A stretch of 64,000 nucleotides of DNA from Methanobacteriota archaeon (GTDB lineage: Archaea > Thermoplasmatota > Thermoplasmata > SG8-5 > JAGLSY01), in NCBI GenBank assembly GCA_020697715.1, contig JAEHCO010000001.1, forward strand, positions 746,149-810,148. The letters are read 5' to 3'. A program made the position numbers and the translations under genes. Under the pieces are notes generated by a model that was given only the letters and a program-made list of their open reading frames with translations, was not told the origin of the DNA and searched no databases. Below, in pieces: positions 18,417 through 62,157 of this stretch. The first letter of the stretch is position 1. The number at the start of each line of letters is the position of its first letter.

Positions 18417-20876
18417 ATGGAATTTGATAGGAAAGTGATTAGCATTTTACTAATCACTTCAATGATATTAGCTAGTGTCGCGATAGTTTCTGAGAACGTG
18501 AGTTCCATCGATGTAGGTGGTAAAACTGTCACGGATATTGCCTCCCTTCCAAATGGGGTGACCATCAATGATATCTCATGGATGGATGATGGCTCAATGG
18601 CATTGGCTGTTGGAGCCAATGAATCCGGTGGCTCGAATGCTTTCTGGTATTATCCAAATACCGATCAATGGGTGGCCATCACACCATATTGTGTCGAGGT
18701 GGTCATGGAATTGGTCCATACCCAGACAGCCACAGAAACTGGCCCCTATGCCCTTGCAGACTCGCCTGTTTACAATTACACTTTCTATGTTGATGATGGC
18801 AGTCTTAGTCAGATAGTGGAGGGCGTGGATTACACTTTTGACCCAGTTACGGGACACATAACAATGTTGGCAGGTATAGCTCCTGCTGCAGATATTTTAT
18901 GCTGGTACAATTACTCAGTAAGAGAATTGTTCGCAACTGAATATGATAAGTTCACTGGTAGCTTCGGTATTGTTGGATCATTTATTGATGGTATACAGTC
19001 CAGTGCATTGTACATAACTCCCGGATCCTCGGAAATGATGGAGATATCACATAATGGTGCATGGCCGACCCAGGAACTAAGAGGTATGGATGTGGATGAG
19101 TACGGCAATTTCCTAGCAGTAGGATCAAATGATCTGGTCTTATTCTACAGACTACTGGATGACACTTGGTATGCGGTTGCCGATAATGAAGGTGAGACTG
19201 GCTGGGATTACAATGATGTTAGCTATGAGCTGGAAAATCATAGATACTACCTTGTGGGTGGTAATGCCAGCGGCGGCGTGATCGCATACTGTGACGCTCT
19301 TGCTGATAATACGGCTATACCAGTGAAGCATCACAATTATGATTCTTTTGCCAATATGACCCAGAAGGCGATCATCAATTCCATCGAATGGAACAATGAT
19401 CCGAATAAGTTCGGCGGAAATCAATACGCTTTGTTAGTAGGTGGCTCGGATCTGGTAATGATCCAGCCAATCGATTCAGGATCGCCGATGATCGTTGGCC
19501 CCCAGATCCCGAACATGGTCTTCGAGGATGTTGGATTTGATGAATACTCATGGGCGGATGCGACACTTGTCGGATGGGATCAATCCACTTCCAAAGGTTA
19601 TATTCTTTATTTCACACCCGGGGAATCCAATATAAAGACACTACATTCTGACTTAAGCCAGAAGTTCTATTGTGTGGATTACCGACCACCGAACAGTCCG
19701 TCCTTTGGTTTTGTACTGGGAGCAACTGGAGCAATGAAGATCAATACCAATGCATTTGATATGACCACCAAGCTCTACGTGAACACCGATGTGCCTCATG
19801 TATTCGATATAGACATGTGGGATGCCAGTGATGCTGGTCAGGTCTCGGTGCTCAATACACAGGTCGATGTCAAGAACACATACACCTTTTTCACGGAGGT
19901 GAATTACACTATTGGAGGAGTGGATGAGTTCTGGGACAATAATGACAATGTCAGAGTCATTCTTTGGGCATGGCATGATGAGGGGCAGACAGATACCGAT
20001 TCAAATCCAGAAGGGACCTGGGCCACAGAAGATAATAGGACCCGGCAGTTCAGTGTCGCATGGGATGAGGGGACCACTCTTGTTCCAGGACAGGGATCAG
20101 CCAGTATGTTATATCCTGTTGGAAGCGCAGGAGAGGACGAGTTCAGGCTGGACAGCTACTGGGTCGATCCAACGGGATATGGTTTAGACAGTAGCACCTG
20201 GCGATTGTATTTCAATATAACTTTCGATAATCAAACATGGGCCGCGGATGGAAATGGCTTTGGAAATGGAGCATCATCCAATATTAATGACCCTGGCCAA
20301 TCATTGAACGATATAAATAGCTGGGATATGAGATTCCAGATATATGACCAGAATTTCGTAACAGCACTGAATGAGAGTTATGAGGAGTTCGGAATATTCA
20401 AGTTCACGAACATCAGTGTCAGTGGAAACCCAATGGGCAATGCACCTCCAGGAACCAATGATTCCGCTCTATCACCATTCTCCCAGATCACCTATGCCGC
20501 GAATCTGGATTATTATCTCAATGTATCCATAACCAATCTTTCCAAAGTAGGTGGCGGAGCAGAGATCGGAGCCAATAATATCCGTGTTGAGATGAATGAT
20601 CCGCAGGCCAATAGCACCAATACCCAGTTGAACGACACGTTCAGCTATTTCCCGGATGCGGACATTCCTCTTGGAATTTGGGGGAATGTATCACAACCTG
20701 TTTCTAATTGGGTCTTACCAGCGCCACTGAATGGAACAACAGCCAATGGTCCATTTGGTTCGGATTACAATGCTTACGGTGGAGCCACTGATCTGGAGTG
20801 GTATGCGACCGTTCCGGGGGCCACACTCGAAGGGATCTATGAGGCTGTTATAACGATCACGATAGGGTACTATTGA
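18417..20876 (+). CDS. Array protein A1: secreted beta-propeller scaffold with small (~75 aa) insert and conserved C-terminal domains
   Basis: GGAGG SD before ATG 18417; signal peptide; PHVFDIDMW...TYTFFTEVNY, EEFG, NAPPG motifs; ends GIYEAVITITIGYY. Confidence 0.85.
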   Translation: MEFDRKVISILLITSMILASVAIVSENVSSIDVGGKTVTDIASLPNGVTINDISWMDDGSMALAVGANESGGSNAFWYYPNTDQWVAITPYCVEVVMELVHTQTATETGPYALADSPVYNYTFYVDDGSLSQIVEGVDYTFDPVTGHITMLAGIAPAADILCWYNYSVRELFATEYDKFTGSFGIVGSFIDGIQSSALYITPGSSEMMEISHNGAWPTQELRGMDVDEYGNFLAVGSNDLVLFYRLLDDTWYAVADNEGETGWDYNDVSYELENHRYYLVGGNASGGVIAYCDALADNTAIPVKHHNYDSFANMTQKAIINSIEWNNDPNKFGGNQYALLVGGSDLVMIQPIDSGSPMIVGPQIPNMVFEDVGFDEYSWADATLVGWDQSTSKGYILYFTPGESNIKTLHSDLSQKFYCVDYRPPNSPSFGFVLGATGAMKINTNAFDMTTKLYVNTDVPHVFDIDMWDASDAGQVSVLNTQVDVKNTYTFFTEVNYTIGGVDEFWDNNDNVRVILWAWHDEGQTDTDSNPEGTWATEDNRTRQFSVAWDEGTTLVPGQGSASMLYPVGSAGEDEFRLDSYWVDPTGYGLDSSTWRLYFNITFDNQTWAADGNGFGNGASSNINDPGQSLNDINSWDMRFQIYDQNFVTALNESYEEFGIFKFTNISVSGNPMGNAPPGTNDSALSPFSQITYAANLDYYLNVSITNLSKVGGGAEIGANNIRVEMNDPQANSTNTQLNDTFSYFPDADIPLGIWGNVSQPVSNWVLPAPLNGTTANGPFGSDYNAYGGATDLEWYATVPGATLEGIYEAVITITIGYY

Positions 20877-20908
20877 TGGTCTGATAATAAGGCTGATCTC
20901 CAAAAAGG

Positions 20909-20935
20909 CACAATCGGATAATCTATCCGATTGTG
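20909..20935 (+). terminator. Hairpin after A1
   Basis: CACAATCGGATA-ATC-TATCCGATTGTG perfect 12-bp inverted repeat followed by a T/C-rich tract. Confidence 0.6.
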
Positions 20936-20982
20936 TTATCCTACTTTTCCCCATAATATATAATAGTTACCCAAATAGTATA

Positions 20983-20990
20983 TTTATATA
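20983..20990 (+). promoter_or_regulatory. Putative internal TATA box for A2 onward
   Basis: TTTATATA within the largest (222 nt) intergenic gap of the array. Confidence 0.4.
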
Positions 20991-21098
20991 AAGTAACATA
21001 CAAGCTTTATTCTCTAAGGGGGGTTCCGAAAGGGCTCTGCATGATCCGCATCTCTCAATTATGGGAGGGCGAATTCAATAATAGAGGGGACGAGGCCT

Positions 21099-24000
21099 AT
21101 GTTCAGAAAACGAGTTATAGCTTTGAGCATTGTGATGTTGATGATAGCCAGTGTATTCACAGGAATATCATTTCTAATCACAGCTGAAGATGTTGGAACG
21201 GATCCTATCGAGGATATATCAAGTGCTCCAGCAGGTGTCCAATTGAATGATATCGCATGGCATCCTGATGAGAATATTGCCGTTGCCGTTGGTAATGATT
21301 CGACCAATGGATACATTTACAGATATGAGCCAGATGCTGATAATTGGGCCAATCTCAGAAATTATGTGGGAGATACTTTCAAGGGCGTGACCAGAACCGA
21401 GCCTTGGACCTTCTTTGATGATGCAGAGTCTGATGCTGGATGGACAATAAATTCATGGAGGGGTAACTTGGACTGGGAAAGAAAGAATCCAACAGTCTTG
21501 CCAGTGCCAGGCTCTGGTATCTCTCATGACACTGCATATTCTGGTAATTCAGTATGGTGGTTTGGAAACACCACCACTGGGGATTACAATGATAATAATC
21601 AGATAGTCAGAGGTAGCATGATATCCCCTGTAAAACACATACCAAATATCTCGACCAATGCATACCTATCGTTCCAGCACTGGTTCGATGTTGAGTCCGG
21701 TGGAAGTTATGACTACAGTCATGTCTATATCAAGAACACTACCGACCCAGGATGGACAAATCTGTACACCTGGAACTCTGGATGGGTAAGCTCCAATGGA
21801 GGCGCTGGCACTCACTCGAAGATTTCCTGGACACAAGAGAGATATGATATATCTGACTGGATAGGAAATGATGTCCTTCTTAACTTCACATTTGATTCTG
21901 GGGGAGACGGATCAGCTAATAATTATGCTGGATGGCATATCGATGATATCCAGCTGGAATCCAATGGTATTTTCATGGCTGTGGGTAATCCTGGCGGGGG
22001 TTCTTTCTCCGCTTTCTATACGGATGGTTACAGTCCGATGACCAGTGTGGAAGACCTGGCTGGCTTTGATCTTTATGATGTAGCTGCCGGACCTATTGGG
22101 ACCGCTGTGGCTGTCGGAGCAGGCGGAGCTGCCCTTTACTGGGATGGTGAAGTTTGGCAAGGTCTAAGTGGCCCGGCTGGCACGGACACCCTGGCATCTG
22201 TGGATTGTAATGGCTCGCATTACTTCATTGTAGGCTATGACTCGGGTGACAATGGGATCGGCTTCTTCATAACGGCCAATGAGCTGGCCACAGGGAATTA
22301 TGACATGCACTCAATGCCTGGAGCCCCCACTTACAAGCTCAATAGTGTAAGTTGGTCCAATGATTGTCCGGCTGGCAGTTCGGATAATGGATTGGGAATA
22401 ATCGCCGGAGAAGGAAACATCCTCGGTCTGACCAATCCCGAGTTCTGGCGGCAGAAGGATCCATCAACGGTTCCCACTGGCAGAAGGAATCAGGCCATGT
22501 CCTGGGATGAAGATTACAATCAAATGATAATGTTCGGTGGAAGTAGTGGAGTTAACCTTGGCGATACCTGGGCATATGATATTGGCAATGATGAATGGAA
22601 TAACCTGAACCCAGGAGGCGCCCCATCTGCAAGAGAATACCCCAGGATGGTATACAGTCCAACTGACAATGTTCATATAATGTTCGGGGGCAATGATGGT
22701 GGTGGCTATGATGATGAGACCTGGGTGTACAATTATGCCACAAACTCCTGGACGAACAAGAATCCCAACCCCAGACCCCCTACAAGATCCGAGCACACTA
22801 TGGCCTATGACGAGGTCTATCAAAAGGTCATTCTCTTCGGTGGAAAGAATAATGGTGGAAACCTGGCAGATACATGGGCGTACGATTACCGCACCAACAC
22901 ATGGACCAATATGACCCCCACAATATCAGGAATTCCAAGTGCGAGGTTCCTGAGTGGAATGAGCTATGACGCAATGAACGAAAAGACCATAATGTTCAGT
23001 GGCTGGGGATCTTCAGGAGCCATCAGCGACACTTGGGCCTACGATTATCCCAGCAATACATGGACCGATATGAGTCCAGTACCATCCCCAACAGCGAGAG
23101 ACAGGCATGCCATGACCTTCGATAAGGCTATTGGCCGAAGTGTTGTCCATGCTGGTTGGACCGGAGCTAATGTAGACGATACATGGACATACGATTATGG
23201 GACCAATACCTGGGAGGAAATGACCACACCCACTCGTCCATCTTATAGGTTTGATATGGTAATGGCCTATGCCACACAAGGTGTGATCGTCATGTTCGGA
23301 GGGAACTATCCTGTATCCAATGATGAAACATGGCTATGCAGGCTGAATGTGAACCCATGGGGGGAACCTTCCAGTGTCACGAATGGTGAGAGCTTCACTG
23401 ACACTGCATGGGATACAGCTGGAACAACAGCTATCGTCGTTGGTCATAATACCATATCCGCGGTCCTTTATTCATATCAATCTGGGGATGAGGATGTGAC
23501 TAAATTACAGGATTTGAACAATGTACTGGCTGGCCACGAGCTTTATGGCGTCAGCTGGAGACCTCTGGACCATGGTGCGGAATATGCCATGGCCGTTGGA
23601 GCCAGTGCCTTCAAGCTATGGAGCAATGTCTTTGATGATGGTACCGAAATAACAGTGTCCACTGACAAGCCACACATTTTCCAGCATGGCCTATGGAAGA
23701 CCGCGGATGGTCTATATTCTGCTTCAAAATTGGATAGCCAGCTGGATGTCCGGACAACATACACTTTCTTCGCCGAGGTCAATTACACCATCGGCGACGT
23801 GGATGACCTTATGGATGCGGATGGGAATTCGCGGATCGAGGTAATGGCCTGGTATGATGAAGGGAACACAGGAACATCCAATCCTGAACCGTCATGGGCC
23901 TCTGTTGATAACAGGACCAGGCAATTCAGGCTCATGTGGTTCGAGCAGAATGGACCTGTACCTGCCACAGCCAGTATGCTTTATCCCATTGCCAGTCCAG

Positions 24001-24758
24001 GGATCGACGAGTTCCAATTGGACGGATGGTGGATGGATCCCATCGCCTATGGTGCTGATGGCAATACAAGGAGATTCTTCTTCAATGTCACACTCGGGCC
24101 ACAGACATGGGCAGCGGATGGTAATGGCTTCAGCAATGGCATAGGTGTGCCATCTCACGATAAGGGCGTGGCTCTCAATGATCCAGACAGCTGGGATTTC
24201 AGGGTTCGACTATACGACAATAACTTCGTCAATTCGGCAAATCTCTCATTTGGTGAGTTCGGGATCTTCAGATACACGAACATCACAGTAGCTGGCAACC
24301 CTGGCGGGAATGCACCGCCAGGAACTATGAACTCCGGACTGGGACCGCAGAGCCAGATCACATATTCATCCAATATTCCACATTATGTCAATGTCTCAGT
24401 GGGGGATCTGAACAGACAGGGTGGTGGCGGTAGTATTGCTGCTACGAACATCAATGTCAGTCTCCAGAATGATCTGGGAATTGGATTGAACCCATACACT
24501 GAGATCAATGATGATACTTGGCCCAATGGAAGGGCCTTTACAGGTGCTGGACTAGCCAATGATCGGTGTGTCTGGGGTAATAGAACCCAGCTCATAAAAT
24601 CCATGCCAGCGCCAAAGAACGGGACTACCTCCCATGGACCTTGGGGTTCTGATTTCAATAGCATGGGAGTGACGTACATCAACTGGTGGGCCAATGTGCC
24701 CGGAGCTACGCCTGAAGGTATCTACCAGGCGAGCGTGACATTTACAATAGAATATTAG
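21099..24758 (+). CDS. Array protein A2: scaffold with MAM/immune-inhibitor-like jelly-roll insert and 6-blade Kelch insert
   Basis: FFDDAE...LSFQHWFD.E...GWHIDDI; six PxxRxxxxMxYD...FGG...DTWxYD...W repeats; ends GIYQASVTFTIEY. Confidence 0.85.
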   Translation: MFRKRVIALSIVMLMIASVFTGISFLITAEDVGTDPIEDISSAPAGVQLNDIAWHPDENIAVAVGNDSTNGYIYRYEPDADNWANLRNYVGDTFKGVTRTEPWTFFDDAESDAGWTINSWRGNLDWERKNPTVLPVPGSGISHDTAYSGNSVWWFGNTTTGDYNDNNQIVRGSMISPVKHIPNISTNAYLSFQHWFDVESGGSYDYSHVYIKNTTDPGWTNLYTWNSGWVSSNGGAGTHSKISWTQERYDISDWIGNDVLLNFTFDSGGDGSANNYAGWHIDDIQLESNGIFMAVGNPGGGSFSAFYTDGYSPMTSVEDLAGFDLYDVAAGPIGTAVAVGAGGAALYWDGEVWQGLSGPAGTDTLASVDCNGSHYFIVGYDSGDNGIGFFITANELATGNYDMHSMPGAPTYKLNSVSWSNDCPAGSSDNGLGIIAGEGNILGLTNPEFWRQKDPSTVPTGRRNQAMSWDEDYNQMIMFGGSSGVNLGDTWAYDIGNDEWNNLNPGGAPSAREYPRMVYSPTDNVHIMFGGNDGGGYDDETWVYNYATNSWTNKNPNPRPPTRSEHTMAYDEVYQKVILFGGKNNGGNLADTWAYDYRTNTWTNMTPTISGIPSARFLSGMSYDAMNEKTIMFSGWGSSGAISDTWAYDYPSNTWTDMSPVPSPTARDRHAMTFDKAIGRSVVHAGWTGANVDDTWTYDYGTNTWEEMTTPTRPSYRFDMVMAYATQGVIVMFGGNYPVSNDETWLCRLNVNPWGEPSSVTNGESFTDTAWDTAGTTAIVVGHNTISAVLYSYQSGDEDVTKLQDLNNVLAGHELYGVSWRPLDHGAEYAMAVGASAFKLWSNVFDDGTEITVSTDKPHIFQHGLWKTADGLYSASKLDSQLDVRTTYTFFAEVNYTIGDVDDLMDADGNSRIEVMAWYDEGNTGTSNPEPSWASVDNRTRQFRLMWFEQNGPVPATASMLYPIASPGIDEFQLDGWWMDPIAYGADGNTRRFFFNVTLGPQTWAADGNGFSNGIGVPSHDKGVALNDPDSWDFRVRLYDNNFVNSANLSFGEFGIFRYTNITVAGNPGGNAPPGTMNSGLGPQSQITYSSNIPHYVNVSVGDLNRQGGGGSIAATNINVSLQNDLGIGLNPYTEINDDTWPNGRAFTGAGLANDRCVWGNRTQLIKSMPAPKNGTTSHGPWGSDFNSMGVTYINWWANVPGATPEGIYQASVTFTIEY

Positions 24759-24769: not shown

Positions 24770-24841
24770 ATGAAAACCAACACAGAAAAACTGAGCAAGA
24801 ACTTGACGGCCTTCGAACAGAGAAGGGGTGATTCTCAATGA
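24770..24841 (+). CDS. Possible 23-aa bridging ORF between A2 and A3
   Basis: GGAGG SD then MKTNTEKLSKNLTAFEQRRGDSQ*; TGA overlaps the A3 ATG (ATGA). Confidence 0.3.
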   Translation: MKTNTEKLSKNLTAFEQRRGDSQ

Positions 24842-27800
24842 ATCAAAAAATGACCTCAATAGTGATAGTGTGTGCGATGCTGTTGATGGGAATAACCATC
24901 AACATAGACAGTGGCGCCCAAGGGGCCTTCGTGAACTACCAGTCCGTACCATGGGACAGTAACTTCACACCATTGGATTCCGCATGGGATCCAGCCGGAG
25001 ACAATTGTATCGTTGTAGGCAATGATACGTCAGGACTACAGTCAAGTGCCTGGCATTATTATGAGCCTACGGACACTTGGTCTCAGATATCTGAGGCCGG
25101 TGGTTATATGTCAACACCTGGCAATTATGCTGAGAATCAGAACTCTGGAATTTCTTATCCAACTATCCAGGGTGCTATCGACGCGGCCAATGAGGGTGAT
25201 ACCATCGAGGTATGGGCAGGTTCATATACTGAGAATATTGCCGTTGGCATTCCCCTTACCTTGGAGGGAAATGGAAGTTACAACACCGTTATTGACGGCG
25301 CTGGTGCAGGTAATGTCGTCACAATATCAGTAGATGGTGTTGAGTTCAGTGGTTTCACGGTCACTAATTCCGGAGCAGGGAATTCTGGGATATTGCTGTT
25401 CAATTCGGACAATAGCCAGATACATAACAATACTGCTGAGGGAAATGGTTATGGGATACGCCTTGAGGGTTCATCCAACAATATCATTAGGGATAATGAT
25501 GTGGAGAACAATGATGTTGGAATGATAACCACTGACAGTCCAGAGATAAAGAAGATGGTCGGCATAACAGGTTATGGGGGTATGGGCTATGGTACTATGT
25601 TCGACATGGACCCATCTGGAGATAATTATGAAGTTGTACGTTCTTTCACCCCTGCATATGAAGATGGATACAGTCCGCAATTTGGGAAATTGACACAGGA
25701 TATCTTTGATCCCAGTATCCTGTTCGGTATGACGGCAAATGGTGGAACATATAATGAGGGGGTCATTTACAAGGTTCGCACCGATGGATCTGATTATGAG
25801 ATCCTACATGAGTTCAATGGGGGCACGACAGATGGAGGACGTCCATATGATGCCACCCTCCTTCAGATAGGCTCCACTCTTTATGGAATGACCTATGATG
25901 GAGGGATTTCTGATGCTGGAGTAATATTCTCGATCGAAAGAGATGGTACTGGTTTTGACATATTGCATGAATTCTCTACAGGGGCTGGTGGAAATAGTCC
26001 CCGAGGCAGTTTGACATATGATGGCATCAGGCTATACGGAATGACGTATTATGGAGGGGCTGTCTTCAATTATGGTGTTATCTTCTCGATGAACTTGGAT
26101 GGAAGTGCATATACCGTCCTGCGCAGTTTTTCAGCTCCAGATGGAGAATATCCATACGGTAGTTTGATACTGGATATGACTACCGGAACCTCCTTGTTCG
26201 GCATGGCCAGAGTAGGGGGTAGTGGCTATGGGACTATCTTCAGGATCAGTACAGATGGCAGTAGCTTCAATGTCCTGCACACTTTCACAGCACTATCAAC
26301 AGACGGACGCTATCCATATGGTTCTCTGATCCAGGATGGGCTGACCCTTTATGGAATGACGTACCAGGGTGGCAATGCTCTTGGTAATGATGGGTGTGTT
26401 TTTAAGATCCAAACAGATGGTAGTGGATTCACCCTCTTGCACAGCTTTTCAACCTCGGGAGGAGGCTACTATCCATATGGTGATCTGGTGCAAAGCGGCG
26501 GCATGCTTTACGGTATGACGCGCTACGCCACAGGAGGGACTGGAATGATATTTGGAGTAAGCACTGATGGATTAACATACAACACACTGCATACCTTCAC
26601 GAATTCACCAGATGGAGCTTACCCATATGGTGGTCTAATACTGGATGGGGCAACCCTTTACGGAGCAACAGGCAATGGAGGCCTGAACTACGGAGCACTG
26701 TTCAAGATAAACACGGACAGCAGTGGCTATTCTATAATTCATAATTTCGATGGTGTCGAGCATGAAGGAACAAAGCCATCTGGTCGCATGGTGCAAGATG
26801 GGAACACCTTGTATGGAGTTACTGAAGATGGTGGAGCTTATGGTTATGGAACCTTCTACAAGATAAACACGGACTACACGGGTTATACCATCCTGCATAA
26901 TTTCGATTATAATACAGAGGGTTATCCATATGCCAGTAGTGTCATTCAGGTAGGCTCGACATTCTACGGAATGCTTTATGAAGGGAACACGGATGATCAA
27001 GGAAGCCTTTACAAGATAAATGCAGATGGCACTGGATTCACTATCCTTCGTGATTTCGAGGATTGGGATGGAAGCTACCCATCCGGTTATTTAGCCTACA
27101 GCGACCCATACCTTTACGGCATGACAGAGAGCGGAGGCATGTGGGGCGAAGGGGTCTTGTACAGATTACGAACAGATGGGACGGATTTCTCTGTAATGGC
27201 TGAATTCGAATATGGTTCAGGATCACCGGCCTATCCATATTTCAATGGATTGGTCGATGGTGGATCGGTCATGTATGGATTTTCTCAAAATGGAGGGATC
27301 TTCAGCAGGGGATGTATATTCAGCATTGATAAGACAACATGGTTCATGGATGTTCTTTACAGCTTCACTGGCGATGTTGATGGAAGCTATCCTCATGGAG
27401 TTCCGATATTGGATGGCGGATACTTGTACGGGACAGCATCCAGTGATGGAGATGTTGTTGCGAATGATGGTACAATATTCAGAATAAACACCGATGGTAC
27501 CAATTTCGTGGTCCTTCATACTTTCCTTCCTGTTGATGGATCGAACCCATACCAAGGGCTGGCACTAGATGGCAATGAGCTCTATGGGATGACCGGTAAT
27601 GGAGGAGCATTCAATGATGGTACAATATTCAAAATGGATAAGGATACAACTACATTCACGGTCCTTCATGAGTTTTCGAGCAATCCAGATGGAAGAAATC
27701 CTAATTATAATGATATCACTGTGGTCGTAATTCCAGCAGCTCAATCCATGGGCAACCTCATCTACCACAATAATTTCATTGATAATACCCAGCAGGCACA

Positions 27801-34082: not shown

Positions 34083-34085
34083 TTG

Positions 34086-41715: not shown

Positions 41716-41721
41716 GGGGAT

Positions 41722-44418: not shown

Positions 44419-44419
44419 A

Positions 44420-51753: not shown

Positions 51754-51767
51754 GAGGGGGTGAAAGA

Positions 51768-54458
51768 ATGATGGATACGAGAAAAATACTGACTCTGGCG
51801 ATAATAACCCTAATGATGTGTGGAAGCGTGTTGATAGTCACACCTTATACACCTGCAGTAGCGGAGGATTCAGCCAAGGTCTTTGAAGCCCTAGATGGTG
51901 GATTCCCATTGGCTTATCAAACAACCATGGATCAGAGTTGTGAAGATGCAGTTGATCATTACACTGTTAGTTCCGGGGTTCCGTGGGCCCAGACATTCAA
52001 GCCAACAATAACAGGTAGGCTTTTAAGTGTCGATCTCCAACTTTATGCTGATGCTCCGATCACAACATCAATTCGCTGTGAGATCAGGACCACTCACTGG
52101 GACACTGACAAATGGGTTCCAGATGATGTGGGTGGTAGGATAACCTTTGAGGGTGATTCCCAGACACTGACAACATCTCCCACCTGGCATCAATCTACAA
52201 TATCGACCAAACCGATCTTAACAGCCGGAGAGACCTATGCATTGGTGCTTGTATGGTTGAGCCAGGATTTCAAATGGAGTTGCCTAGGGAGCTATGGGGA
52301 TGGAGATGGCTTCAACACTGGTGATGGAGGAACCACTTGGAGTGCCAATGGTGCCGAGAACTTTGGCTTCCGCACTTATATGGAAGAGCCAAACAATGAG
52401 CTTTCAAAGGTCGCCTGGCATGGTAATAATGACTATGCATATGGAGTCGATGGAACCTCAAGCAACCTATACAAATTCACAAGGGATACCGGCTCATGGT
52501 CCAATGCAGGAGAGCTTGAACCAGGGGCTACATTCAATGACATAGTCTATGATCCAAGCACATCCCTATTTTACATAGTTGGCCAGGATAATAGCGGCTA
52601 TGCAGCTGGTTGGATGTACAATCACGACACCGGGACACCAACCTATCTGATAGACACATTTGTGACCGGGGCATTCTATGGGGTGGAATACGCGGCTCCT
52701 TACGAGCATCCTTATCTGTTCCTAGCAGTTGGAGAAGATACAGCCAATGGCAAGGCCTACATGTGCTGGTATGATGATAATTCTCCATGGTGGGCTGCGG
52801 AAGACACCAGTCCCAGTCCAGATGATGCTCTCGGAGATGTGATTTACGATGTCACCTGGAATAGAATAAATGACGGAGGCAGTGATTATTTCTGTGTTGG
52901 AGAGGACGCGTCAGGATTCGGAGTGGTATACTACATTGGTGGCCCCTTGGAAAACGGAATGGATGTTGGAGCTACACAATTCTGGGACCCCATAAGCTCA
53001 TTGAAAGCCATAGACTATCATCCCACACAGCCCTATGCGATAATGGTCGGTGAGAACACTGACTCACTGGGAAATGCATACTTGTTCAACAGTGCCTGGG
53101 ATCAACCCACGATGATCGCAAATACAACAGACACTCTTTTTGATGTGGACTGGCGCCCTGATGGGGAGATGGCTGTGGCTGTTGGAGCTAAGTTGAATGG
53201 TAAAGGTGTCATGTACCAGCATCACGAAGATACTGATTATGTAATTGATCTATCTGCTGCCCTGTCTCCAGATACTGAAGCCCTATTTGGCGTCGCTATG
53301 AAGGGATTCTCCAGCCCCAGCTCTGGCCTCATAGTTGGAAGTTCAGGAGCAGTTGGATTTTATCCGTCGGCGGTTGATTCTGGAACGACGATAACAGTAA
53401 GCTCTGAAGAACCACATATGTTCAATATGGATATGTGGAAAACATTGGATGCTGGACGTGTATCCAAATTGAATTCACAGGTGGATGTGGAGACTACTTA
53501 CTCATTCATGGCCGAGGTCAACTACACGAAGGGCGGCATTGACCAGTTCTACACAGACGGAGACGACGATATCTATGTGATCCTGACCGCTTGGTATGAC
53601 AATGGAGCCGCTCCTTCCAGCCTACCAGGTCAGGATGATCACAACAGGACAAAGGAGTTCCAGGCAATTTGGGTAGAAGGAGTGGCTGCACCTGGAAATG
53701 CAGGTATGATGTATCCTGTTGGAAGTCCAGGAACTGATGAGGTACAGCTTGATAGCTATGGCTTCGAGATAGGGGCAGGTGACCATTATTACATCTACTT
53801 CAATCTGACATTCGGACCTCAAATGTGGGCGGCTGATGGTAATGGATTTGCAAATGGCGCATCCTCCGATGTCTATGATTACACCACCAGCTATGATGAT
53901 CCAAATAGCTGGGATTTTGTAATGACCGTGGAGGATGCGAACTTCAACAGTGCATCGAACTCCAGCTTCGAAGAGTTCGGAATATTCCAATTCACAAACA
54001 TAACAGTGTCTGGGAATCCGGGCGGAAACGCTCCGCCAGGGTCGAGCACACAGCTTGGACCGAATAGCCAGATAATGGTTTCTTCCAATATTGACTATTA
54101 TGTCAATGTCTCGATCCCGGATCTGGCCAAAGTTGGTGGAGGGCTGCCAATACTGGCAACCAATGTGGCAGTGAACATAACAAGCCCATTTGCCAACAAT
54201 ACGAATTCGATGATAAATGGAACTGCAGTGAATTTCCCAGGAGCCAATCAGACATTGAGCATATGGGGCAACACGAGCCAGGCCTTTGGAGACTGGGTTG
54301 TTGCAGCACCATTGAACAGTACGACGGCTCATGGACCGCAAGGAGCGGACTTCCAGAGCATTGGAACGACCGACTTAGAATGGTGGATCGATGTGCCAGG
54401 CGGTACAGCTGAAGGCATATATCAAGCCACGATAACATTCAAAATTGGATACTATTGA
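51768..54458 (+). CDS. Array protein A10: scaffold with ~160-aa N-proximal insert
   Basis: GGGGTGA SD then ATG 51768/51771; GFP[...AQTFKP...NFGFRTY]..LSKVAW; ends GIYQATITFKIGYY. Confidence 0.85.
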   Translation: MMDTRKILTLAIITLMMCGSVLIVTPYTPAVAEDSAKVFEALDGGFPLAYQTTMDQSCEDAVDHYTVSSGVPWAQTFKPTITGRLLSVDLQLYADAPITTSIRCEIRTTHWDTDKWVPDDVGGRITFEGDSQTLTTSPTWHQSTISTKPILTAGETYALVLVWLSQDFKWSCLGSYGDGDGFNTGDGGTTWSANGAENFGFRTYMEEPNNELSKVAWHGNNDYAYGVDGTSSNLYKFTRDTGSWSNAGELEPGATFNDIVYDPSTSLFYIVGQDNSGYAAGWMYNHDTGTPTYLIDTFVTGAFYGVEYAAPYEHPYLFLAVGEDTANGKAYMCWYDDNSPWWAAEDTSPSPDDALGDVIYDVTWNRINDGGSDYFCVGEDASGFGVVYYIGGPLENGMDVGATQFWDPISSLKAIDYHPTQPYAIMVGENTDSLGNAYLFNSAWDQPTMIANTTDTLFDVDWRPDGEMAVAVGAKLNGKGVMYQHHEDTDYVIDLSAALSPDTEALFGVAMKGFSSPSSGLIVGSSGAVGFYPSAVDSGTTITVSSEEPHMFNMDMWKTLDAGRVSKLNSQVDVETTYSFMAEVNYTKGGIDQFYTDGDDDIYVILTAWYDNGAAPSSLPGQDDHNRTKEFQAIWVEGVAAPGNAGMMYPVGSPGTDEVQLDSYGFEIGAGDHYYIYFNLTFGPQMWAADGNGFANGASSDVYDYTTSYDDPNSWDFVMTVEDANFNSASNSSFEEFGIFQFTNITVSGNPGGNAPPGSSTQLGPNSQIMVSSNIDYYVNVSIPDLAKVGGGLPILATNVAVNITSPFANNTNSMINGTAVNFPGANQTLSIWGNTSQAFGDWVVAAPLNSTTAHGPQGADFQSIGTTDLEWWIDVPGGTAEGIYQATITFKIGYY
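54102..54416 (+). repeat. 315-bp near-identical copy 1 (A10 3' end)
   Basis: Matches 56761-57075 with 4 mismatches by manual alignment. Confidence 0.9.
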
Positions 54459-54477
54459 GGTGGATGATGGAGGTGGA

Positions 54478-57117
54478 ATGATGAGTGGAAATAGAGAAAT
54501 GAAAAAGATACTGGCCATGGCTTTAGTTAGCATCATGGTCTGCGCAAGCATAGTGATAGTTTTACCGAATAACACGGTAATGGCAGAGGATTCTGCAAAA
54601 CCTTTTGTGGATTTGAACACGGGCTATCCCCTTCCGAGTTTTAATTTGGACCAAGAACAGAGTATGGAAGGAACGATCGTTACTATGTCTGGGTTCTGGA
54701 TGGCCCAAACTTTCACGGCAGGAATAACAGAGAATTTAGCAATAGCTAGTATACATTTTGCCTCATGGCCTGATGTCGAAGATATATCTGTGTACATCTA
54801 TGATACAAGCGGCGGTCTGCCAAATACCGTAATGGCTACAGAAACATTAGCAGGACCAACTGTTCTGGACAATGAATGGTTCAATGTTACCTTTGACCCG
54901 CAGCCATCATTGATAATAGGTGTGCAGTATGCAGTGGTATTCAAGAGTTCTGGCTCCGGCGGAAGTCCGGATTTGATGAACATGGATGTTTATGCAGGTG
55001 GGAGTGCCTACCAGAGCTTTGACGGAAATACATGGATGGACGTTAACAACCCTCTTTGGGACTTCACATTCAGAACATATTACGCTTCATCTGAATCCGG
55101 CTTGACCAATATTGCCTGGCATGAATCTGGGGACTATGCATTGGCCGTCTCAGGAGCAGATGATGGGAACATATACAGATATCAAAGATCTAACAACACC
55201 TGGTACTTGGCCTTCAATACTAATCCTAGTGGAACCAATAATGATATCATTTATGATGCAACTTGGGAGAATTTCTTCATTGTCGGAGCTATAGGTGGAT
55301 TCACGCATTCATACACTTGGAACGAGACATTTGGTCTCGTGGATCTGGGATCTACATTTTCTGATGGGCCGTACGAAGGTGTTGTGGCTTGTTCAGCTCC
55401 CTATTATTTCCTGGCAGTAGGGCATGATCTTGCTAATGTGGGCAAATTCGCATGGTACAATAAATCAAGTGCCAGTTATGAGGAATATTTCACCCCCTCT
55501 GATGAATGGCTGTACGATGTGACCTATTCTCCAACCGAAGGGAATTACTATGCAGTTGGAGACCTCGGTGGAACTGGTATTGTTTATCAATTTGATTATC
55601 CTGGCGACTCAACCGGATTACGGATTAGCGATGCCTGGAATGATACTTTCAGCCCTCTGTATTCCGTGGATTGGAGCCCCTTAGGTGGTGGGAATAATTA
55701 TGGACTCATGGCCGGATCAAATAGTCAAGGCAATGGCAATGTTCACAGGCTCAATCCTGGACCATCATATGATTCGATAATGAGTACCAGCGATACAATC
55801 TGGGATATTGATTGGCATCCTAATGGAGAAATGGCCATTCTAGTGGGTGAGACCAATGTTGGAAACGGTGCAATATATAGCCATTACCCTCAAAACCTAC
55901 AAAGTAAGTTAAGCAATGATCCAGATTATCCTTCACCCTTTTATGGTATTGCGATGAAAGGTTATTCCAGCCCCAGCTCGGGATTGATAATCGGAAATTC
56001 TGGCTCAGTAGGGTTTTACCCGTCTGCCATTGATTCAGGAACTACGATAACCGTGAACGCGGCCTTCCCTCACAACTTCGACATAGACATGTGGAAGACC
56101 AGTGACGGGATCGGAGGAAGCTCCAAGCTCAATACACAGGTCGATGTGGAGGAGACATACACCTTCATGGCCGAGGTCAATTACTCTGTCAGTGGCACTG
56201 ACCAATTCTATGCTGATGGTGTAAATGATGTGAGGATCGAGCTGTCGGCCTTCTTCGATGAGGGAGCCACACCGGGAGTGTTCCCAGCAACGGATGACCA
56301 GCACAGGACAAGAGCCTTTGTCGCTCTCTGGGAAGAAGGAAATGTGCCTTTCACGGATACGGCCAGCATGCAATATCCTATCGGTAGTCCCGGAACAGAT
56401 GAGTTCACCCTGGACAGCTTCTGGTTGGATTCTTCAGCACCTGGAGATCACTATTACATTTACATCAACATAACCTTTGGACCCCAAACATGGGCGGCCA
56501 GTGGTCCCTTTGGCGGAGCTTCTACAGATATCAATGACGATGTCCAATCATTGGATGATTCTAATACCTGGGACTTCGAGATGAGGATATATGACTCTAA
56601 TTATGGTGGAGCAACCAATTCCACATATGAGGAATTCGGCATTTTCCAGCACACGAACATAACCGTATCTGGAAATCCTGGCGGCAATGCGCCACCAGGG
56701 TCAAATGCGCAGTTGGGACCGAACAGCCAGATCGCAGTTTCTTCCAATATCGATTATTACGTCAATGTCTCGATCCCGGATCTGGCCAAAGTTGGTGGAG
56801 GGCTGCCAATACTGGCAACCAATGTGGCAGTGAACATAACAAGCCCATTTGCCAACAATACGAATTCGATGATAAATGGAACTGCAATGAACTTCCCTGG
56901 AGCCAATCAGACATTGAGCATATGGGGCAACACGAGCCAGGCCTTTGGAGACTGGGTTGTTGCAGCACCATTGAACAGTACGACGGCTCATGGATCGCAA
57001 GGAGCGGACTTCCAGAGCATTGGAACGACCGACTTAGAATGGTGGATCGATGTGCCAGGCGGTACAGCTGAAGGCGTGTACCAGGCATCTGTGACATTCA
57101 GGATAGGGTACTACTAG
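54478..57117 (+). CDS. Array protein A11: scaffold with ~155-aa N-proximal insert
   Basis: GGAGGTG SD then ATG 54478 (alternatives 54481, 54499); GYP[...AQTFTAG...DFTFRTY]..LTNIAW; ends GVYQASVTFRIGYY. Confidence 0.85.
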   Translation: MMSGNREMKKILAMALVSIMVCASIVIVLPNNTVMAEDSAKPFVDLNTGYPLPSFNLDQEQSMEGTIVTMSGFWMAQTFTAGITENLAIASIHFASWPDVEDISVYIYDTSGGLPNTVMATETLAGPTVLDNEWFNVTFDPQPSLIIGVQYAVVFKSSGSGGSPDLMNMDVYAGGSAYQSFDGNTWMDVNNPLWDFTFRTYYASSESGLTNIAWHESGDYALAVSGADDGNIYRYQRSNNTWYLAFNTNPSGTNNDIIYDATWENFFIVGAIGGFTHSYTWNETFGLVDLGSTFSDGPYEGVVACSAPYYFLAVGHDLANVGKFAWYNKSSASYEEYFTPSDEWLYDVTYSPTEGNYYAVGDLGGTGIVYQFDYPGDSTGLRISDAWNDTFSPLYSVDWSPLGGGNNYGLMAGSNSQGNGNVHRLNPGPSYDSIMSTSDTIWDIDWHPNGEMAILVGETNVGNGAIYSHYPQNLQSKLSNDPDYPSPFYGIAMKGYSSPSSGLIIGNSGSVGFYPSAIDSGTTITVNAAFPHNFDIDMWKTSDGIGGSSKLNTQVDVEETYTFMAEVNYSVSGTDQFYADGVNDVRIELSAFFDEGATPGVFPATDDQHRTRAFVALWEEGNVPFTDTASMQYPIGSPGTDEFTLDSFWLDSSAPGDHYYIYINITFGPQTWAASGPFGGASTDINDDVQSLDDSNTWDFEMRIYDSNYGGATNSTYEEFGIFQHTNITVSGNPGGNAPPGSNAQLGPNSQIAVSSNIDYYVNVSIPDLAKVGGGLPILATNVAVNITSPFANNTNSMINGTAMNFPGANQTLSIWGNTSQAFGDWVVAAPLNSTTAHGSQGADFQSIGTTDLEWWIDVPGGTAEGVYQASVTFRIGYY
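56761..57075 (+). repeat. 315-bp near-identical copy 2 (A11 3' end)
   Basis: Matches 54102-54416 (offset 2659). Confidence 0.9.
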
Positions 57118-57172: not shown

Positions 57173-59848
57173 ATGAGAAAAATGATAGAAATGAAAAAGA
57201 TATTGGCCATAGTGATCACGATTGCTATGGCAAGTGCTAGTTTAGTGATAGTTCTACCGAACAACACGGTAGTTGCTGAGGATTCTGCAAGGCCACTTGC
57301 TGGTCTGTCCGATGGATTGCCAGCAACAATGAATGTGGTGGATCAAAGAGATGAGGGCATAGGGTCATTCTTTACTGTAGATGATACTAACCAATTAGCC
57401 CAGAGGTTCACATGCGGTGTGGATGGAGACCTTACAAGTATAGACCTACACGTGTCTGGATCCTTTGATAATGGTGGCAACTTGTTTTATCAGATCCAGG
57501 ATGGTAGCGGTCCTTTACCTGGAACTCCACTCGATGTGGCTGAAATGATACCGATCAGTTTTCTAGGGGGAGGATGGAATAATCTTGCATTACCACCAAC
57601 AGATCTGTCTGAAGGTATGACATATGCTATTGTGATCTGGGCCTCCTCTACTAATTCGGTCGACATATCGATCGATACAGGAGCTCTATACGGTGGCTTG
57701 GGTTCCATGTCTATGAACGGTGGAGCATCCTTCAGTCCACTGGGAGGGCAGGATGTTACTTTCAGAACCTACATGGAGATCCCTTTCACTATGAGCAAGG
57801 TGGCATGGCATTCAAGTGGAGACTATGCTCTAGGTATAGCAAGTGGCACAGACCATGTTTACAAATATACACGAAATTCCATGGCCTGGGCCAGTGAGTA
57901 CGACCTTGCTAACGATATGATCTTCAATGATATAGAATACAGTGAGCATTTTGGTCTTTTCTACATCGTGGGAGATGATATTGGAAATTCATGGGCCAAA
58001 GCCTGGAGCTATTATGAGCCAACACAGAGCTTATTGGACCTTAATGCACCTCAACTTGCCTCAACAGACTTCAACTGCCTTTGTCTGGCAGATGAGGGTG
58101 GTACAACTGATTACGCCTTCTTGGCCTTCGGATTTGACTATGGTCAATGGTACGATGAGGGCAATGATATCTGGGTCGAAGTGACCGGAGGATTGAGCGC
58201 AGCTGTGGATGTGATGGATGTAACCTGGGACCATGGATATGGCTCTATATCATATTGGGCTGTTGGAGATAGTGCTGGTTCTGGATACTTGTATTATTTC
58301 ACCGGCGCGGGTGATACTGCAGCAGCACAATACAATCCTTCAGTATGGGGTGCAGTTGGATCATTCAGTGGTATTGAATGGCAGCCTGCTGGAGCCTCGG
58401 ATCATGCCGTGATAGTCGGTGAGAATTTAGGAGATGGAAATGTCTGGAGCTGGGATGGTACGACTGCAGAAGCTTTGTTAAACACCACTGATACCTATAC
58501 TGATGTTTCCTGGCACCCTGATGGAAGCATGGCCATGGCCGTTGGTTACACAGCATCAGATGATGGTGTGATCTACCACTATATTCCAGATAATGGCGCA
58601 ATGATCAAAATGAGCACAGATGGTGATCATGGAAAGCTATATGGTGTTGATGTCAAAGGCTGGACCAGTCCAAGCTCTGGATTGATAGTTGGATCCAGCG
58701 GAGCAGTTGGTTCTTACCTTTCAGCATCAGACGGAGATACGACATTGACCGTCAATGCCGCTTTCCCGCACATATACGATATCGACATGTGGAAAACCAG
58801 CGACGCTGGTGAGACATCCACACTTAACTCAAGAGTGGATGTTGAAGATACCTACACCTTCTACACCGAAGTGAACTACACGATAGGAGGTACAGATCAG
58901 TTTTTCGATGGTACCAATAACACCTTCGTGGACCTTACAGCGTGGTTCGATGATGGAAATGATGCAACAAGCATGACGCCATCAGCAAGTGACGATTCCC
59001 ACAGAACTAGGAAGTTCGTGGCCAGGCTTTACGAGACAACCAGCTTGGTCGCAAGCGGTGTTACAGGATCGGTCATCTATCCAGACACGACAACCAATGA
59101 AATCTTGTTTGATAGTGTCGGATGCAGCGGACCATACGGTGCTGATGACAGGTACGGTGTTTGGATCAATGTAACATTCGGAGCTCAGATGAGAGCTGGC
59201 GATGGCCAGAATTATGCAAATGGAGCTGCAGGTAGTATATTCGACAGCAACCAGGCATTCGATGATGATGACAGCTGGAACTTCCAGATGCAGATATTCG
59301 ATAATGACTTCCCTGGAGCGACGAACACCACATACGAGGAGTTCGGAATATTCATGGCCACTAACATCACAGTGTCCAATAATCCAAGTGTCAATGCTCC
59401 TCCAGGAAGTGTGAGCCAGGCATTTGATTCCAACAGTCTGATCACTTATTCGGCAAATATTCCATACCACGTGAATGTGTCAATTGAGAGATTGAACTTG
59501 ACAACCGATGATACCAAATTCATACCCGCCAGTAATGTCAATGCAAGTCTTGTCGACATGTACCCAGTTGGATTCGATCTTGAACCATACACTGAGATAA
59601 ATTCAACGTGGGGAGCTGCTGGAAGACCTTTCGCAGCACCCGGCGCAGAGCGTATGGTATGGGGCAATACAAGCCAGGCAACCGAGCTGGTACCAGCTCC
59701 AAACAATGGAACTGCTGCACATGGTCCTGTATACTCGAACTTTGACGGATATGGAGCCACGGAGGTCGCATGGTGGATAAGCGTGCCAGGAGCTACATCT
59801 GAAGGTATTTATCAGGCGTCGATAACCTTCAAGATCGGGTACTATTGA
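57173..59848 (+). CDS. Array protein A12: scaffold with ~155-aa N-proximal insert
   Basis: GLP[...AQRFTCG.DG.L...DVTFRTY]..MSKVAW; ends GIYQASITFKIGYY; exact start uncertain (several in-frame ATGs). Confidence 0.85.
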   Translation: MRKMIEMKKILAIVITIAMASASLVIVLPNNTVVAEDSARPLAGLSDGLPATMNVVDQRDEGIGSFFTVDDTNQLAQRFTCGVDGDLTSIDLHVSGSFDNGGNLFYQIQDGSGPLPGTPLDVAEMIPISFLGGGWNNLALPPTDLSEGMTYAIVIWASSTNSVDISIDTGALYGGLGSMSMNGGASFSPLGGQDVTFRTYMEIPFTMSKVAWHSSGDYALGIASGTDHVYKYTRNSMAWASEYDLANDMIFNDIEYSEHFGLFYIVGDDIGNSWAKAWSYYEPTQSLLDLNAPQLASTDFNCLCLADEGGTTDYAFLAFGFDYGQWYDEGNDIWVEVTGGLSAAVDVMDVTWDHGYGSISYWAVGDSAGSGYLYYFTGAGDTAAAQYNPSVWGAVGSFSGIEWQPAGASDHAVIVGENLGDGNVWSWDGTTAEALLNTTDTYTDVSWHPDGSMAMAVGYTASDDGVIYHYIPDNGAMIKMSTDGDHGKLYGVDVKGWTSPSSGLIVGSSGAVGSYLSASDGDTTLTVNAAFPHIYDIDMWKTSDAGETSTLNSRVDVEDTYTFYTEVNYTIGGTDQFFDGTNNTFVDLTAWFDDGNDATSMTPSASDDSHRTRKFVARLYETTSLVASGVTGSVIYPDTTTNEILFDSVGCSGPYGADDRYGVWINVTFGAQMRAGDGQNYANGAAGSIFDSNQAFDDDDSWNFQMQIFDNDFPGATNTTYEEFGIFMATNITVSNNPSVNAPPGSVSQAFDSNSLITYSANIPYHVNVSIERLNLTTDDTKFIPASNVNASLVDMYPVGFDLEPYTEINSTWGAAGRPFAAPGAERMVWGNTSQATELVPAPNNGTAAHGPVYSNFDGYGATEVAWWISVPGATSEGIYQASITFKIGYY
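58741..59845 (+). repeat. ~1.1-kb highly similar copy 1 (A12 3' region)
   Basis: Colinear with 61050-62154 (offset 2309); includes a 128-bp exact match 59465-59592 = 61774-61901. Confidence 0.85.
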
Positions 59849-59931
59849 ATGATATGAGATAAAATTCATGAAATCAAGAAAAAATGAAAAAATGAGGAAA
59901 GGAGGAAAAATGTAAAAAAGGAGATGAGAAA

Positions 59932-62157
59932 ATGAACAAAATAAACAAAATACTGGCCATGGCGGTAGTAATAGCCATGGCATGCGCTAGTATTATAATC
60001 GTGTCGCCGAACAATACGGTGATGGCAGAGGATTCAGCGAAGCCTTTAGCAGAGTTGAATGCGGGATATCCGGCAGGCATAGATAAAGTTGCCTGGCACT
60101 CGGATGGAAGCTTTGCACTTGGTATACAGAGTGGTACAGAACACATTTACAAGTACACAAGACAGACAATGAGCTGGGCCAGTGATTATAACCTTCCCGT
60201 TGGCGATACCTTCATTGATATCAAGTACAGTGAGTTCTTCGATATGTTCTATATTGTTGGAACGCAAAGTGGCCAGCAAGAAGCATGGAGCTATGATTAC
60301 AGCATCCAGAATTTGCTTGACCTGAACTCACCCAAGACAACCATGGGAGTCTATAATGGACTATGCCTGGCTGATGAAGGTGGAACACAACCCTATGCTT
60401 TCCTTGCAGTGGGCTATGCTGATACAAGCAAAGGATGTGCAGCATGGTTCGATGAAGCGGTTGATACTTGGACCGATGTGACCACTGGATTGACTTTGAA
60501 CCACGAACTTTATGATGTAACATGGGACCATGGCTTTACTGCAAATCCATATTGGATCGTCGGAGAGGATATGGGCACGGGGGCTGGAGTTATCTATTTC
60601 ATGAACAGTCCGGGTAATAACAAGGCCAACATCTTTGACACATCTGGCTGGGGTGTTACACCCGGTGCACTGAATGCCATTGACTGGAGGCCTTCAGGCG
60701 GAGCAGACCATGCTATAATGGCTGGAGGCAATTACGGTAACGGAAATGTCTGGCTTTTTGATGGTTTCAATGGAGAAGCTATACTCGATAACACAGATTC
60801 CTACACAGACGCATGCTGGCACCCTGATGGGGGCATGGCCATGGTTGTTGGCTACAATGTTGCTACTGATGGGATAATTCAGCATTATATCCCGGACAAC
60901 GAAGATACCCTCACGAAGATGAGCACAGATGGTGATTATGGACCATTCTATGGCGTTGATGTAAAAGCCTGGTCGAGTCCAAGTTCTGGTTTGATAGTCG
61001 GAGCTACTGGTGCAGTTGGATCATATCTCTCAGCATCTGATGGGAGCACGACATTGACAGTCAATGCCGCTTTCCCGCACATATACGATATAGACATGTG
61101 GAAGACCAGCGATGCTGGTGAAACCTCTACACTAAATGCACGTGTAGATGTTGAAGAGACTTACACCTTCTACACCGAGGTGAACTACACGATCGGTGGA
61201 ACAGATATGTTATTCGATGGTATCAATAACACCTTTGTGGACCTGACAGCGTGGTTCGATGATGGAAATGATGCTACAAGTATGACTCCATCAGCAAGTG
61301 ATGATTCGCACAGAACTAGAAAATTCGTGGCAAGATTCTACGAAACGACCAGTCTGGTTGCAAGTGGTGCAACCGGAGAGATAATATACCCAGATTCAAC
61401 AACCAATGAAATCTTGTTTGATAGTGTCGGATGCAGCGGACCATACGGTGCTGATGACAGGTACGGTGTTTGGATCAATGTCACCTTCGGCCCTCAGATG
61501 AGAGCTGGCGATGGCCAGAATTTTGCAAATGGAGCTGCAGGTAGTATATTCGACAGCAATCAGGCATTCGATGATGATGACAGCTGGAACTTCCAGATGG
61601 AGGTATATGATAATGATTATCCCGGAGCGACAAACACCACATACGAGGAGTTCGGAATATTCATGGCCACGAACATCACGGTGTCCAATAATCCAAGTGT
61701 CAATGCCCCTCCAGGAAGTGTGAGCCAGGCATTTGATTCCAACAGTTTGATCACGTATTCGGCCAATATTCCGTACCACGTGAATGTGTCAATTGAGAGA
61801 TTGAACTTGACAACCGATGATACCAAATTCATACCCGCCAGTAATGTCAATGCAAGTCTTGTCGACATGTACCCAGTTGGATTCGATCTTGAACCATACA
61901 CAGAAATAAATGCAACATGGGGAGCTGCTGGAAGACCATTTGCAGCAGCCAATACAGAGCGTATGGTATGGGGCAATACAAGCCAGGCAACCGAGCTGGT
62001 ACCAGCTCCGAACAATGGAACTGCCGCACATGGTCCTGTATACTCGAACTTTAACGGATATGGAGCAACTGAGGTCGCATGGTGGATCAATGTACCAGGA
62101 GCGACAGCTGAGGGAATATACCAGGCCACGATCACTTTCAAGATCGGGTACTATTAG
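59932..62157 (+). CDS. Array protein A13: insert-free scaffold (741 aa)
   Basis: AGYP-AGIDKVAW contiguous where A7 and A9-A12 have inserts; seven recognisable blades; ends GIYQATITFKIGYY. Confidence 0.87.
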   Translation: MNKINKILAMAVVIAMACASIIIVSPNNTVMAEDSAKPLAELNAGYPAGIDKVAWHSDGSFALGIQSGTEHIYKYTRQTMSWASDYNLPVGDTFIDIKYSEFFDMFYIVGTQSGQQEAWSYDYSIQNLLDLNSPKTTMGVYNGLCLADEGGTQPYAFLAVGYADTSKGCAAWFDEAVDTWTDVTTGLTLNHELYDVTWDHGFTANPYWIVGEDMGTGAGVIYFMNSPGNNKANIFDTSGWGVTPGALNAIDWRPSGGADHAIMAGGNYGNGNVWLFDGFNGEAILDNTDSYTDACWHPDGGMAMVVGYNVATDGIIQHYIPDNEDTLTKMSTDGDYGPFYGVDVKAWSSPSSGLIVGATGAVGSYLSASDGSTTLTVNAAFPHIYDIDMWKTSDAGETSTLNARVDVEETYTFYTEVNYTIGGTDMLFDGINNTFVDLTAWFDDGNDATSMTPSASDDSHRTRKFVARFYETTSLVASGATGEIIYPDSTTNEILFDSVGCSGPYGADDRYGVWINVTFGPQMRAGDGQNFANGAAGSIFDSNQAFDDDDSWNFQMEVYDNDYPGATNTTYEEFGIFMATNITVSNNPSVNAPPGSVSQAFDSNSLITYSANIPYHVNVSIERLNLTTDDTKFIPASNVNASLVDMYPVGFDLEPYTEINATWGAAGRPFAAANTERMVWGNTSQATELVPAPNNGTAAHGPVYSNFNGYGATEVAWWINVPGATAEGIYQATITFKIGYY
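61050..62154 (+). repeat. ~1.1-kb highly similar copy 2 (A13 3' region)
   Basis: Colinear with 58741-59845. Confidence 0.85.

Follow-up and report, generated by a model that had tools for sequence, protein, structure and literature searches.

Thirteen tandem genes of a Thermoplasmata archaeon encode predicted secreted proteins with variable domains set into a constant propeller-and-sandwich scaffold

Large paralogous families of 'adhesin-like proteins' are known in archaea, for example in Methanobrevibacter and Methanomassiliicoccales. Integrin alpha subunits are built of a 7-blade propeller, with an inserted I domain in some integrins, followed by thigh and calf beta-sandwich legs. Por secretion tails, the C-terminal signals of the type IX secretion system (T9SS), are represented by models in Pfam and NCBIfam. 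Here we show how a locus of an uncultivated marine Thermoplasmata archaeon compares with these systems. The window that we analysed is a stretch of 64,000 nucleotides (positions 746149-810148 of contig C11, GenBank JAEHCO010000001.1) from a genome of 2.12 Mb that is 93.8% complete (assembly GCA_020697715.1, called G000 below). It contains an array of 13 genes, A1 to A13, which an earlier sequence-only reading had described as modular secreted proteins sharing a scaffold.

Our study showed that the array consists of 13 co-oriented open reading frames (ORFs) on the + strand, between 18348 or 18417 and 62157, that encode proteins of 741-1795 amino acids (aa), are separated by -20 to +222 nt, and end in the same module. 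The last ~380 aa align across all 13 proteins, with 32-56% identity to A6 and 41 invariant columns. The C-terminal motifs quoted in the earlier reading are all present in the consensus of this alignment, which includes PH.F.IDMWKTSD, EEFG, NITVSGNP.GNAPPG, NGTTAHGPWGSD and VPGAT.EG.Y.A.ITF.IGYY. The constant region extends further: a hidden Markov model (HMM) of the core, built from 27 full-length relatives of ~740 aa (728 match states), spans signal peptide, propeller and the two C-terminal domains, ~700 aa in total. The two-domain C-terminal scaffold first proposed thus stands, but its extent had been underestimated, since the propeller is also constant and the variable domains (hereafter, cargo) lie in or before it, instead of being simply fused to a C-terminal tag.

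Structure prediction with AlphaFold2 gives two beta-sandwich domains for the module, at residues ~28-225 and ~226-380 (13-row alignment; predicted local distance difference test, pLDDT, 78.3; predicted template modelling score, pTM, 0.76). The model of full-length A6 (27 rows, pLDDT 81.6, pTM 0.56) has a 7-blade propeller at residues 34-382, matching the earlier estimate of about seven blades, followed by the two sandwiches. The motif K..[ST]SP..G, thought to close the propeller in each member, turned out to be less general: its strict form is found once per protein, at the end of the propeller, in 6 of the 13, variants can be recognised by eye in 4 others, and the motif is absent from A2, A5 and A8. 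Two conserved segments of A6 have low confidence in both models. The first is a strand-like linker, D..TT.TVN, before domain 1 (residues ~372-389, window ~40603-40656), and the second a loop with an invariant sequon, NGT, in APxNGTTAHGPWGSD (~684-711, window ~41539-41622). Conserved low-confidence segments often become ordered only within a complex or once glycosylated.

The suspicion that the constant region lacks a named family was borne out. The module matched no Pfam or NCBIfam family, and Pfam searches up to an E-value of 5 gave only scattered single matches (E >= 0.046). Searches of PDB sequences returned no match for the module profile (E up to 1) or for the domain-2 profile (E up to 10), and the ESM Atlas gave only unnamed clusters (best score 0.90). 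For the 10 homologues of A6, the only name given by any source is 'hypothetical protein', and full-text searches of the literature found no paper describing the family. In the constant propeller, no WD40, Kelch or BNR repeat scored above the Pfam gathering threshold (a WD40 match in A11 reached 22.4 bits, against a cut-off of 27). Kelch matches are confined to the inserted cargo of A2, and the constant propeller has a generic 7-blade fold. Foldseek searches with the full A6 model ranked first the ectodomains of integrin alpha M, X and V (E 4.6e-14 to 1e-10, TMq ~0.34), together with a Bacteroides hybrid sensor (periplasmic domain) and a Micromonospora sialidase, all of which are extracellular propeller-plus-sandwich architectures. 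The FG-GAP families (PF01839/PF13517) had no match in the 13 proteins at E <= 0.01.

Cargo is found at two or three fixed positions: immediately behind the signal peptide, in the loop between blades 1 and 2, and, in A2, also in a later loop of the propeller. It is inserted after about position 85-105 of the HMM, i.e., after blade 1, in A2, A3, A4, A5 and A8. A common but divergent domain of ~150 aa (22-26% identity, 11 invariant columns) lies between signal peptide and propeller in A7 and A9-A12, and the remaining members, A1, A6 and A13, consist of the core, with an insert of ~80 aa in A1 and no cargo in A6 and A13. The expectation that cargo differs in every member is therefore not upheld, because A5 and A8 have similar sets (three LamG_3 stretches each and a MAM-like domain, plus DUF2341 in A5), the MAM-like domain is common to A2, A5 and A8 (47% identity to that of A2, E 2e-41), and A7 and A9-A12 share their N-terminal domain. 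The accompanying claim that cargo is made of binding-type domain families fared better, with LamG, MAM-like, Kelch, DNRLRE and beta-helix/GloVer matches in Pfam and NCBIfam.

The family is small and lineage-restricted. The module profile matched 267 cluster representatives at E <= 1e-3, and 126 at E <= 1e-30, among 1.84 billion proteins, and public relatives come from metagenome-assembled genomes titled Thermoplasmata, Methanobacteriota or Methanomassiliicoccales archaeon. In the sampled genomes of the class, 43 of 301 (G000 included) have a match. Matches were found in 20 of 21 genomes of the window's order (G000 excluded) and are patchy in the rest of the class, with 0/39, 0/36, 0/37 and 0/33 genomes in four large families. 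The window's genus is the richest, with 15-20 matches per genome. There are 15 module proteins in G000: the 13 of the array, a core-type gene on the other strand ~5.6 kb beyond the window, and a hybrid on contig C22. A search for hidden membrane-anchored relatives in this genome, with separate HMMs for domains 1 and 2, recovered only the same 15 members.

The position of the module at the very C-terminus, already noted for the array, is general in the family: among the best 150 representatives, 135 contain the module end, and in 125 of these the module is the extreme C-terminus. The distant relative P0077 continues with an extra domain and a tail made of PGF, a transmembrane (TM) segment and basic residues (PGF-CTERM-like), and P0127 with a TM segment and a basic tail, so the module would lie next to the membrane in those proteins. 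Six representatives are made of signal peptide and module only, and in four, the C22 protein among them, the module is close to the N-terminus and a different domain ends the protein. The cargo-free core of ~730 aa appears to be the commonest form among relatives, and therefore the core probably has a function of its own. It might be an envelope-forming glycoprotein of these Thermoplasmata lineages, an S-layer or canopy with which the cargo-bearing paralogues co-assemble via the constant region. We regard such a role as unlikely.

The array proteins look extracellular and glycosylated, as far as can be inferred from their sequences. Their N-termini are laid out like Sec signal peptides (n-h-c), small residues occupying -3 and -1 (e.g., VMA followed by EDS), and strongly hydrophobic windows of 19 aa are found only at the N-terminus in 13/13 proteins. 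They contain 206 sequons in 14,423 aa, i.e., 1.43 per 100 aa, compared with a median of 0.39 and a mean of 0.54 in the 1126 long ORFs of the genome, which agrees with the abundance of NxS/T sequons noticed at first sight. They are also acidic (pI ~4.05-4.3, genome median 5.3). G000 encodes a homologue of STT3/AglB (92.9 bits, above the cut-off), and together these N-termini, the sequon enrichment and STT3 are the features of N-glycosylated secreted archaeal proteins as a class. The STT3/AglB match (G000:C22:103026-104210, - strand) is part of an open frame of 2419 aa, whose length is unusually great for an oligosaccharyltransferase. The genome also has two exosortase-family matches. As had been reported, PGF-CTERM is missing from the 13 proteins, and so is any TM segment or hydrophobic window at the C-terminus; they end right after the last strand (...IGYY, ...IEY, ...IETEG). 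Elsewhere in G000, convincing PGF-type tails number 3, and a C-terminal TM anchor is found in 27 large ORFs.

We propose that the array encodes lineage-specific, Sec-exported and N-glycosylated proteins of the cell surface or extracellular space of a non-methanogenic archaeon (MCR alpha was not found in the 93.8%-complete genome). In this model, the constant ~700 aa would fold into a beta-propeller of seven blades and, behind it, two Ig-like beta-sandwich domains with which the polypeptide ends. The propeller would be the platform presenting the variable binding-type domains, set after the signal peptide, in the blade-1/blade-2 loop or, in A2, in the later loop. The sandwiches may act as a stalk or association module by which the head is kept close to the cell envelope or within an extracellular matrix. 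Taken together, the paralogues would equip the cell with a fixed set of heads that bind glycans or proteins, by which it could attach to particles, polymers or partner cells. That these are secreted, N-glycosylated binding proteins on a constant stalk has, in our judgement, about an even chance of being right.

Several points weigh against this proposal. The names of the cargo families (LamG, Kelch, MAM, DNRLRE, beta-helix) indicate folds rather than ligands. The signal peptides are putative, and an uncleaved N-terminal anchor would invert the topology that we assume. The arrangement of domains in the full A6 model is uncertain (pTM 0.56), and its match to integrins is architectural only, with low TM-scores and no FG-GAP. 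Cargo-mediated adhesion can be only part of what the family does, because the bare core occurs widely among relatives and is all there is to A6 and A13. Finally, no anchor is visible in the 13 proteins, which therefore may simply be released. They might then be soluble proteins for the processing or scavenging of polymers, with sandwich domains that bind the substrate, like carbohydrate-binding modules, and cargo that acts on it, and no display on the cell. We consider this reading improbable.

The array is real. The refuting possibility of an assembly artefact, raised together with the first description, is contradicted by two observations: at the DNA level, identity between copies of the shared region is only 60-86%, leaving nothing for an assembler to collapse or inflate, and in the congeneric genome G003 a collinear array lies between the same flanking genes on a contig of 718,769 bases. 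A1-A10 have one-to-one partners in G003 (53-87% protein identity), A11 is an extra gene of G000 lacking such a partner, and A13 has lost an N-terminal domain that is present in its counterpart in G003. In orthologue pairs of the two genomes, identity is 64-92% for the module, 55-88% for the propeller and 28-89% for the cargo; of the 10 pairs with cargo, 8 have cargo that is less conserved than their module, the exceptions being A2 and A7. Over 300 nt, the most similar DNA copies are 53952-54251 and 56611-56910 in A10/A11 (86%), and 58607-58906 and 60916-61215 in A12/A13 (83%); along with the close similarity of the A12 and A13 modules (Table 1), they suggest that duplication or gene conversion took place recently at the array's 3' end. 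The modules of A10 and A11 are 74% identical. The four subfamilies initially recognised are recovered in part. The module tree pairs A3/A4 and A5/A8, and weakly A1/A6, but A2 stands alone and the presumed group of A7 and A9-A13 is split into A9/(A10,A11) and A7/(A12,A13).

We surveyed the neighbourhood of family members at 20 loci in 13 genomes, and no non-family gene recurs beside them across genera. The only non-family clusters present in at least 3 genomes, a TPR/zinc-ribbon protein, a metallo-beta-lactamase-fold protein and a phosphoglycerate mutase, are read here as synteny rather than an accessory system; they are confined to one genus (the TPR protein also occurs in one further genome). 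The pilin-like, chaperone or peptidase genes for which the first reading had suggested looking were not seen at these loci. This bears on the earlier inference that the module would dock cargo on a filament or on the envelope, and on the idea that the proteins form filaments, in which the last domain would polymerise through exchange of a donor strand, on the pattern of TLP-1, chaperone-usher or TasA-type fibres, with propeller heads decorating the fibre. TLP-1a and TLP-1b, which are protomers of pond-water fibrils (PDB 9IKJ and 9IKK), show no sequence similarity to domain 2 of the array, and TLP-1 is a single-domain protomer of ~236 aa with an N-terminal donor strand, whereas the array domain is the C-terminal end of a protein of 740-1800 aa and is modelled as self-complete. 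Filaments of this kind are, in our view, very improbable.

The genes of the array are listed in Table 1. At ~44 kb, or ~2% of the genome, they are among its largest coding investments. GGAGG-like ribosome-binding sites precede the starts that we inspected. One of them lies ahead of the ATG at 18417, which we therefore prefer to the ATG further upstream, at 18348, as the start of A1. The spacer of 222 nt between A1 and A2 contains AT-rich promoter-like stretches and a hairpin, as read from the nucleotides. The stored cluster representative of A11 begins at MSGNRE.

Table 1. Genes of the array and the reference copy of the module (positions in the window).
Feature	Position	Strand	Length	Content	Basis or remark
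A1	18417..20876	+	819 aa	Core with ~80-aa insert after blade 1	ORF opens at 18348; GGAGG 8 nt before 18417
A2	21099..24758	+	1219 aa	MAM-like domain after blade 1; Kelch propeller inserted later in propeller	Pfam Kelch 1.1e-57, InhA-like_MAM 6.9e-9; HMM mapping
A3	24838..29898	+	1686 aa	NosD-like beta-helix and 14 GloVer repeat stretches after blade 1	Pfam/NCBIfam; HMM mapping
A4	29895..34082	+	1395 aa	Unnamed region and two DNRLRE domains after blade 1	NCBIfam NF033679 5.8e-28, 2 stretches
A5	34083..39470	+	1795 aa	Three LamG_3 stretches, DUF2341 and MAM-like domain after blade 1	Pfam; HMM mapping
A6	39490..41715	+	741 aa	Cargo-free core: signal-like helix 1-20, propeller 34-382, domain 1 ~390-585, domain 2 ~586-741	AlphaFold2
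Constant two-domain C-terminal module of A6	40573..41712	+		Same module ends 13/13 genes	Reference copy for module alignment
A7	41722..44418	+	898 aa	Unnamed ~150-aa domain between signal peptide and propeller	
A8	44399..49060	+	1553 aa	Three LamG_3 stretches and MAM-like domain after blade 1	True start probably a few codons later
A9	49072..51753	+	893 aa	N-terminal ~150-aa domain and core	
A10	51750..54458	+	902 aa	N-terminal ~150-aa domain and core	Start uncertain
A11	54445..57117	+	890 aa	N-terminal ~150-aa domain and core	Start uncertain
A12	57173..59848	+	891 aa	N-terminal ~150-aa domain and core	
A13	59932..62157	+	741 aa	Cargo-free core	Module 93% identical to that of A12

Upstream, the array is flanked by housekeeping genes (ribosomal proteins L1 and L10, DNA ligase, ABCE1, rubrerythrin) and by a TM-anchored PLD/LTD/PKD protein; LonB lies downstream. 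The anchored protein is encoded directly upstream of the array (15363-18131, - strand). It has 922 aa, with two lamin-tail, two PLD-like and one PKD domain, a C-terminal TM segment and a basic tail, and its gene keeps the same position in G003. A protein of 445 aa with FG-GAP repeats, encoded ~9 kb upstream of the array (8019-9356, - strand), has no sequence kinship to the array propellers.

Outside the window, the hybrid member of the family (G000:C22:72987-75785, - strand; locus L028:7985-10783) has no propeller. It comprises a signal peptide, an unnamed N-terminal domain of ~175 aa, domain 1 (d1), domain 2 (d2), a second d1 and a different C-terminal domain of ~170 aa. The d1-d2-d1 pattern is also found in single ORFs of genomes G014 and G002, and in G020 it is split over two ORFs, one match containing a TAG stop; G001 has its d1 and d2 matches in reverse order. 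The terminal domain of ~170 aa is a second constant domain, unrelated to the module, that in jackhmmer searches ends ~31 other large ORFs of G000 (481-2638 aa), among them a co-oriented cluster at C11:898806-933913 (- strand). Its motifs are GWNL[IV]S.P, PGEGYWV and a W at the very end; it had no Pfam or NCBIfam match at E up to 5 and only unnamed clusters in the Atlas. On this evidence the organism appears to have two large families of predicted secreted proteins, each defined by its own extreme C-terminal domain.

The hybrid is a candidate adaptor. One can imagine that the propeller-d1-d2 core is the building block of an undescribed surface-display system of wall-less Thermoplasmata. The module would either self-assemble, possibly by strand exchange via a TLP-1-like last domain, or dock onto the conserved d1-d2-d1 hybrid with its second constant C-terminal domain, and the resulting lattice or fibre would present a fixed set of interchangeable lectin-like heads. 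We consider this scheme unlikely.

The cell surfaces of uncultivated Thermoplasmata of marine sediments are essentially unknown, and the array family is conserved gene for gene between species. The module of ~380 aa and the core of ~730 aa are defined targets for metaproteomics, structure determination and cryo-electron tomography. The array also illustrates a design principle, in which binding domains are placed at fixed sites of a propeller borne on a constant stalk. If the module were an attachment or assembly device, it would represent a new way of displaying archaeal proteins that dispenses with TM segments, lipid anchors and known sorting signals.

Overall, the closest architectural parallel is with integrin alpha ectodomains, which also have a 7-blade propeller followed by Ig-like sandwiches, a domain inserted in a propeller loop and an extracellular location. 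The likeness is one of design, not of membership, because the FG-GAP signature is missing, and the predicted propeller and two sandwiches of the array proteins are not followed by a C-terminal TM segment. As in proteins with the C-terminal domain of T9SS, PGF-CTERM or dockerins, a constant element lies at the very C-terminus of many different secreted proteins, but with ~380-700 aa the constant part of the array is far larger than a sorting tag. The array proteins matched no Pfam or NCBIfam model for these signals, no cognate machinery was identified, and the Por secretion tail was absent from their matches, including those of the module in Pfam up to E 5. The archaeal adhesin-like families are similar in comprising many secreted, modular and sequon-rich paralogues with binding-type domains, often clustered, and differ in their scaffold, that of the array being unnamed in the libraries searched and accommodating cargo within the propeller. 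The array thus belongs to a known kind, the modular secreted adhesin-like multigene families of archaea, and what is new in it is the unnamed scaffold, with fixed insertion sites in the propeller and a strictly C-terminal module.

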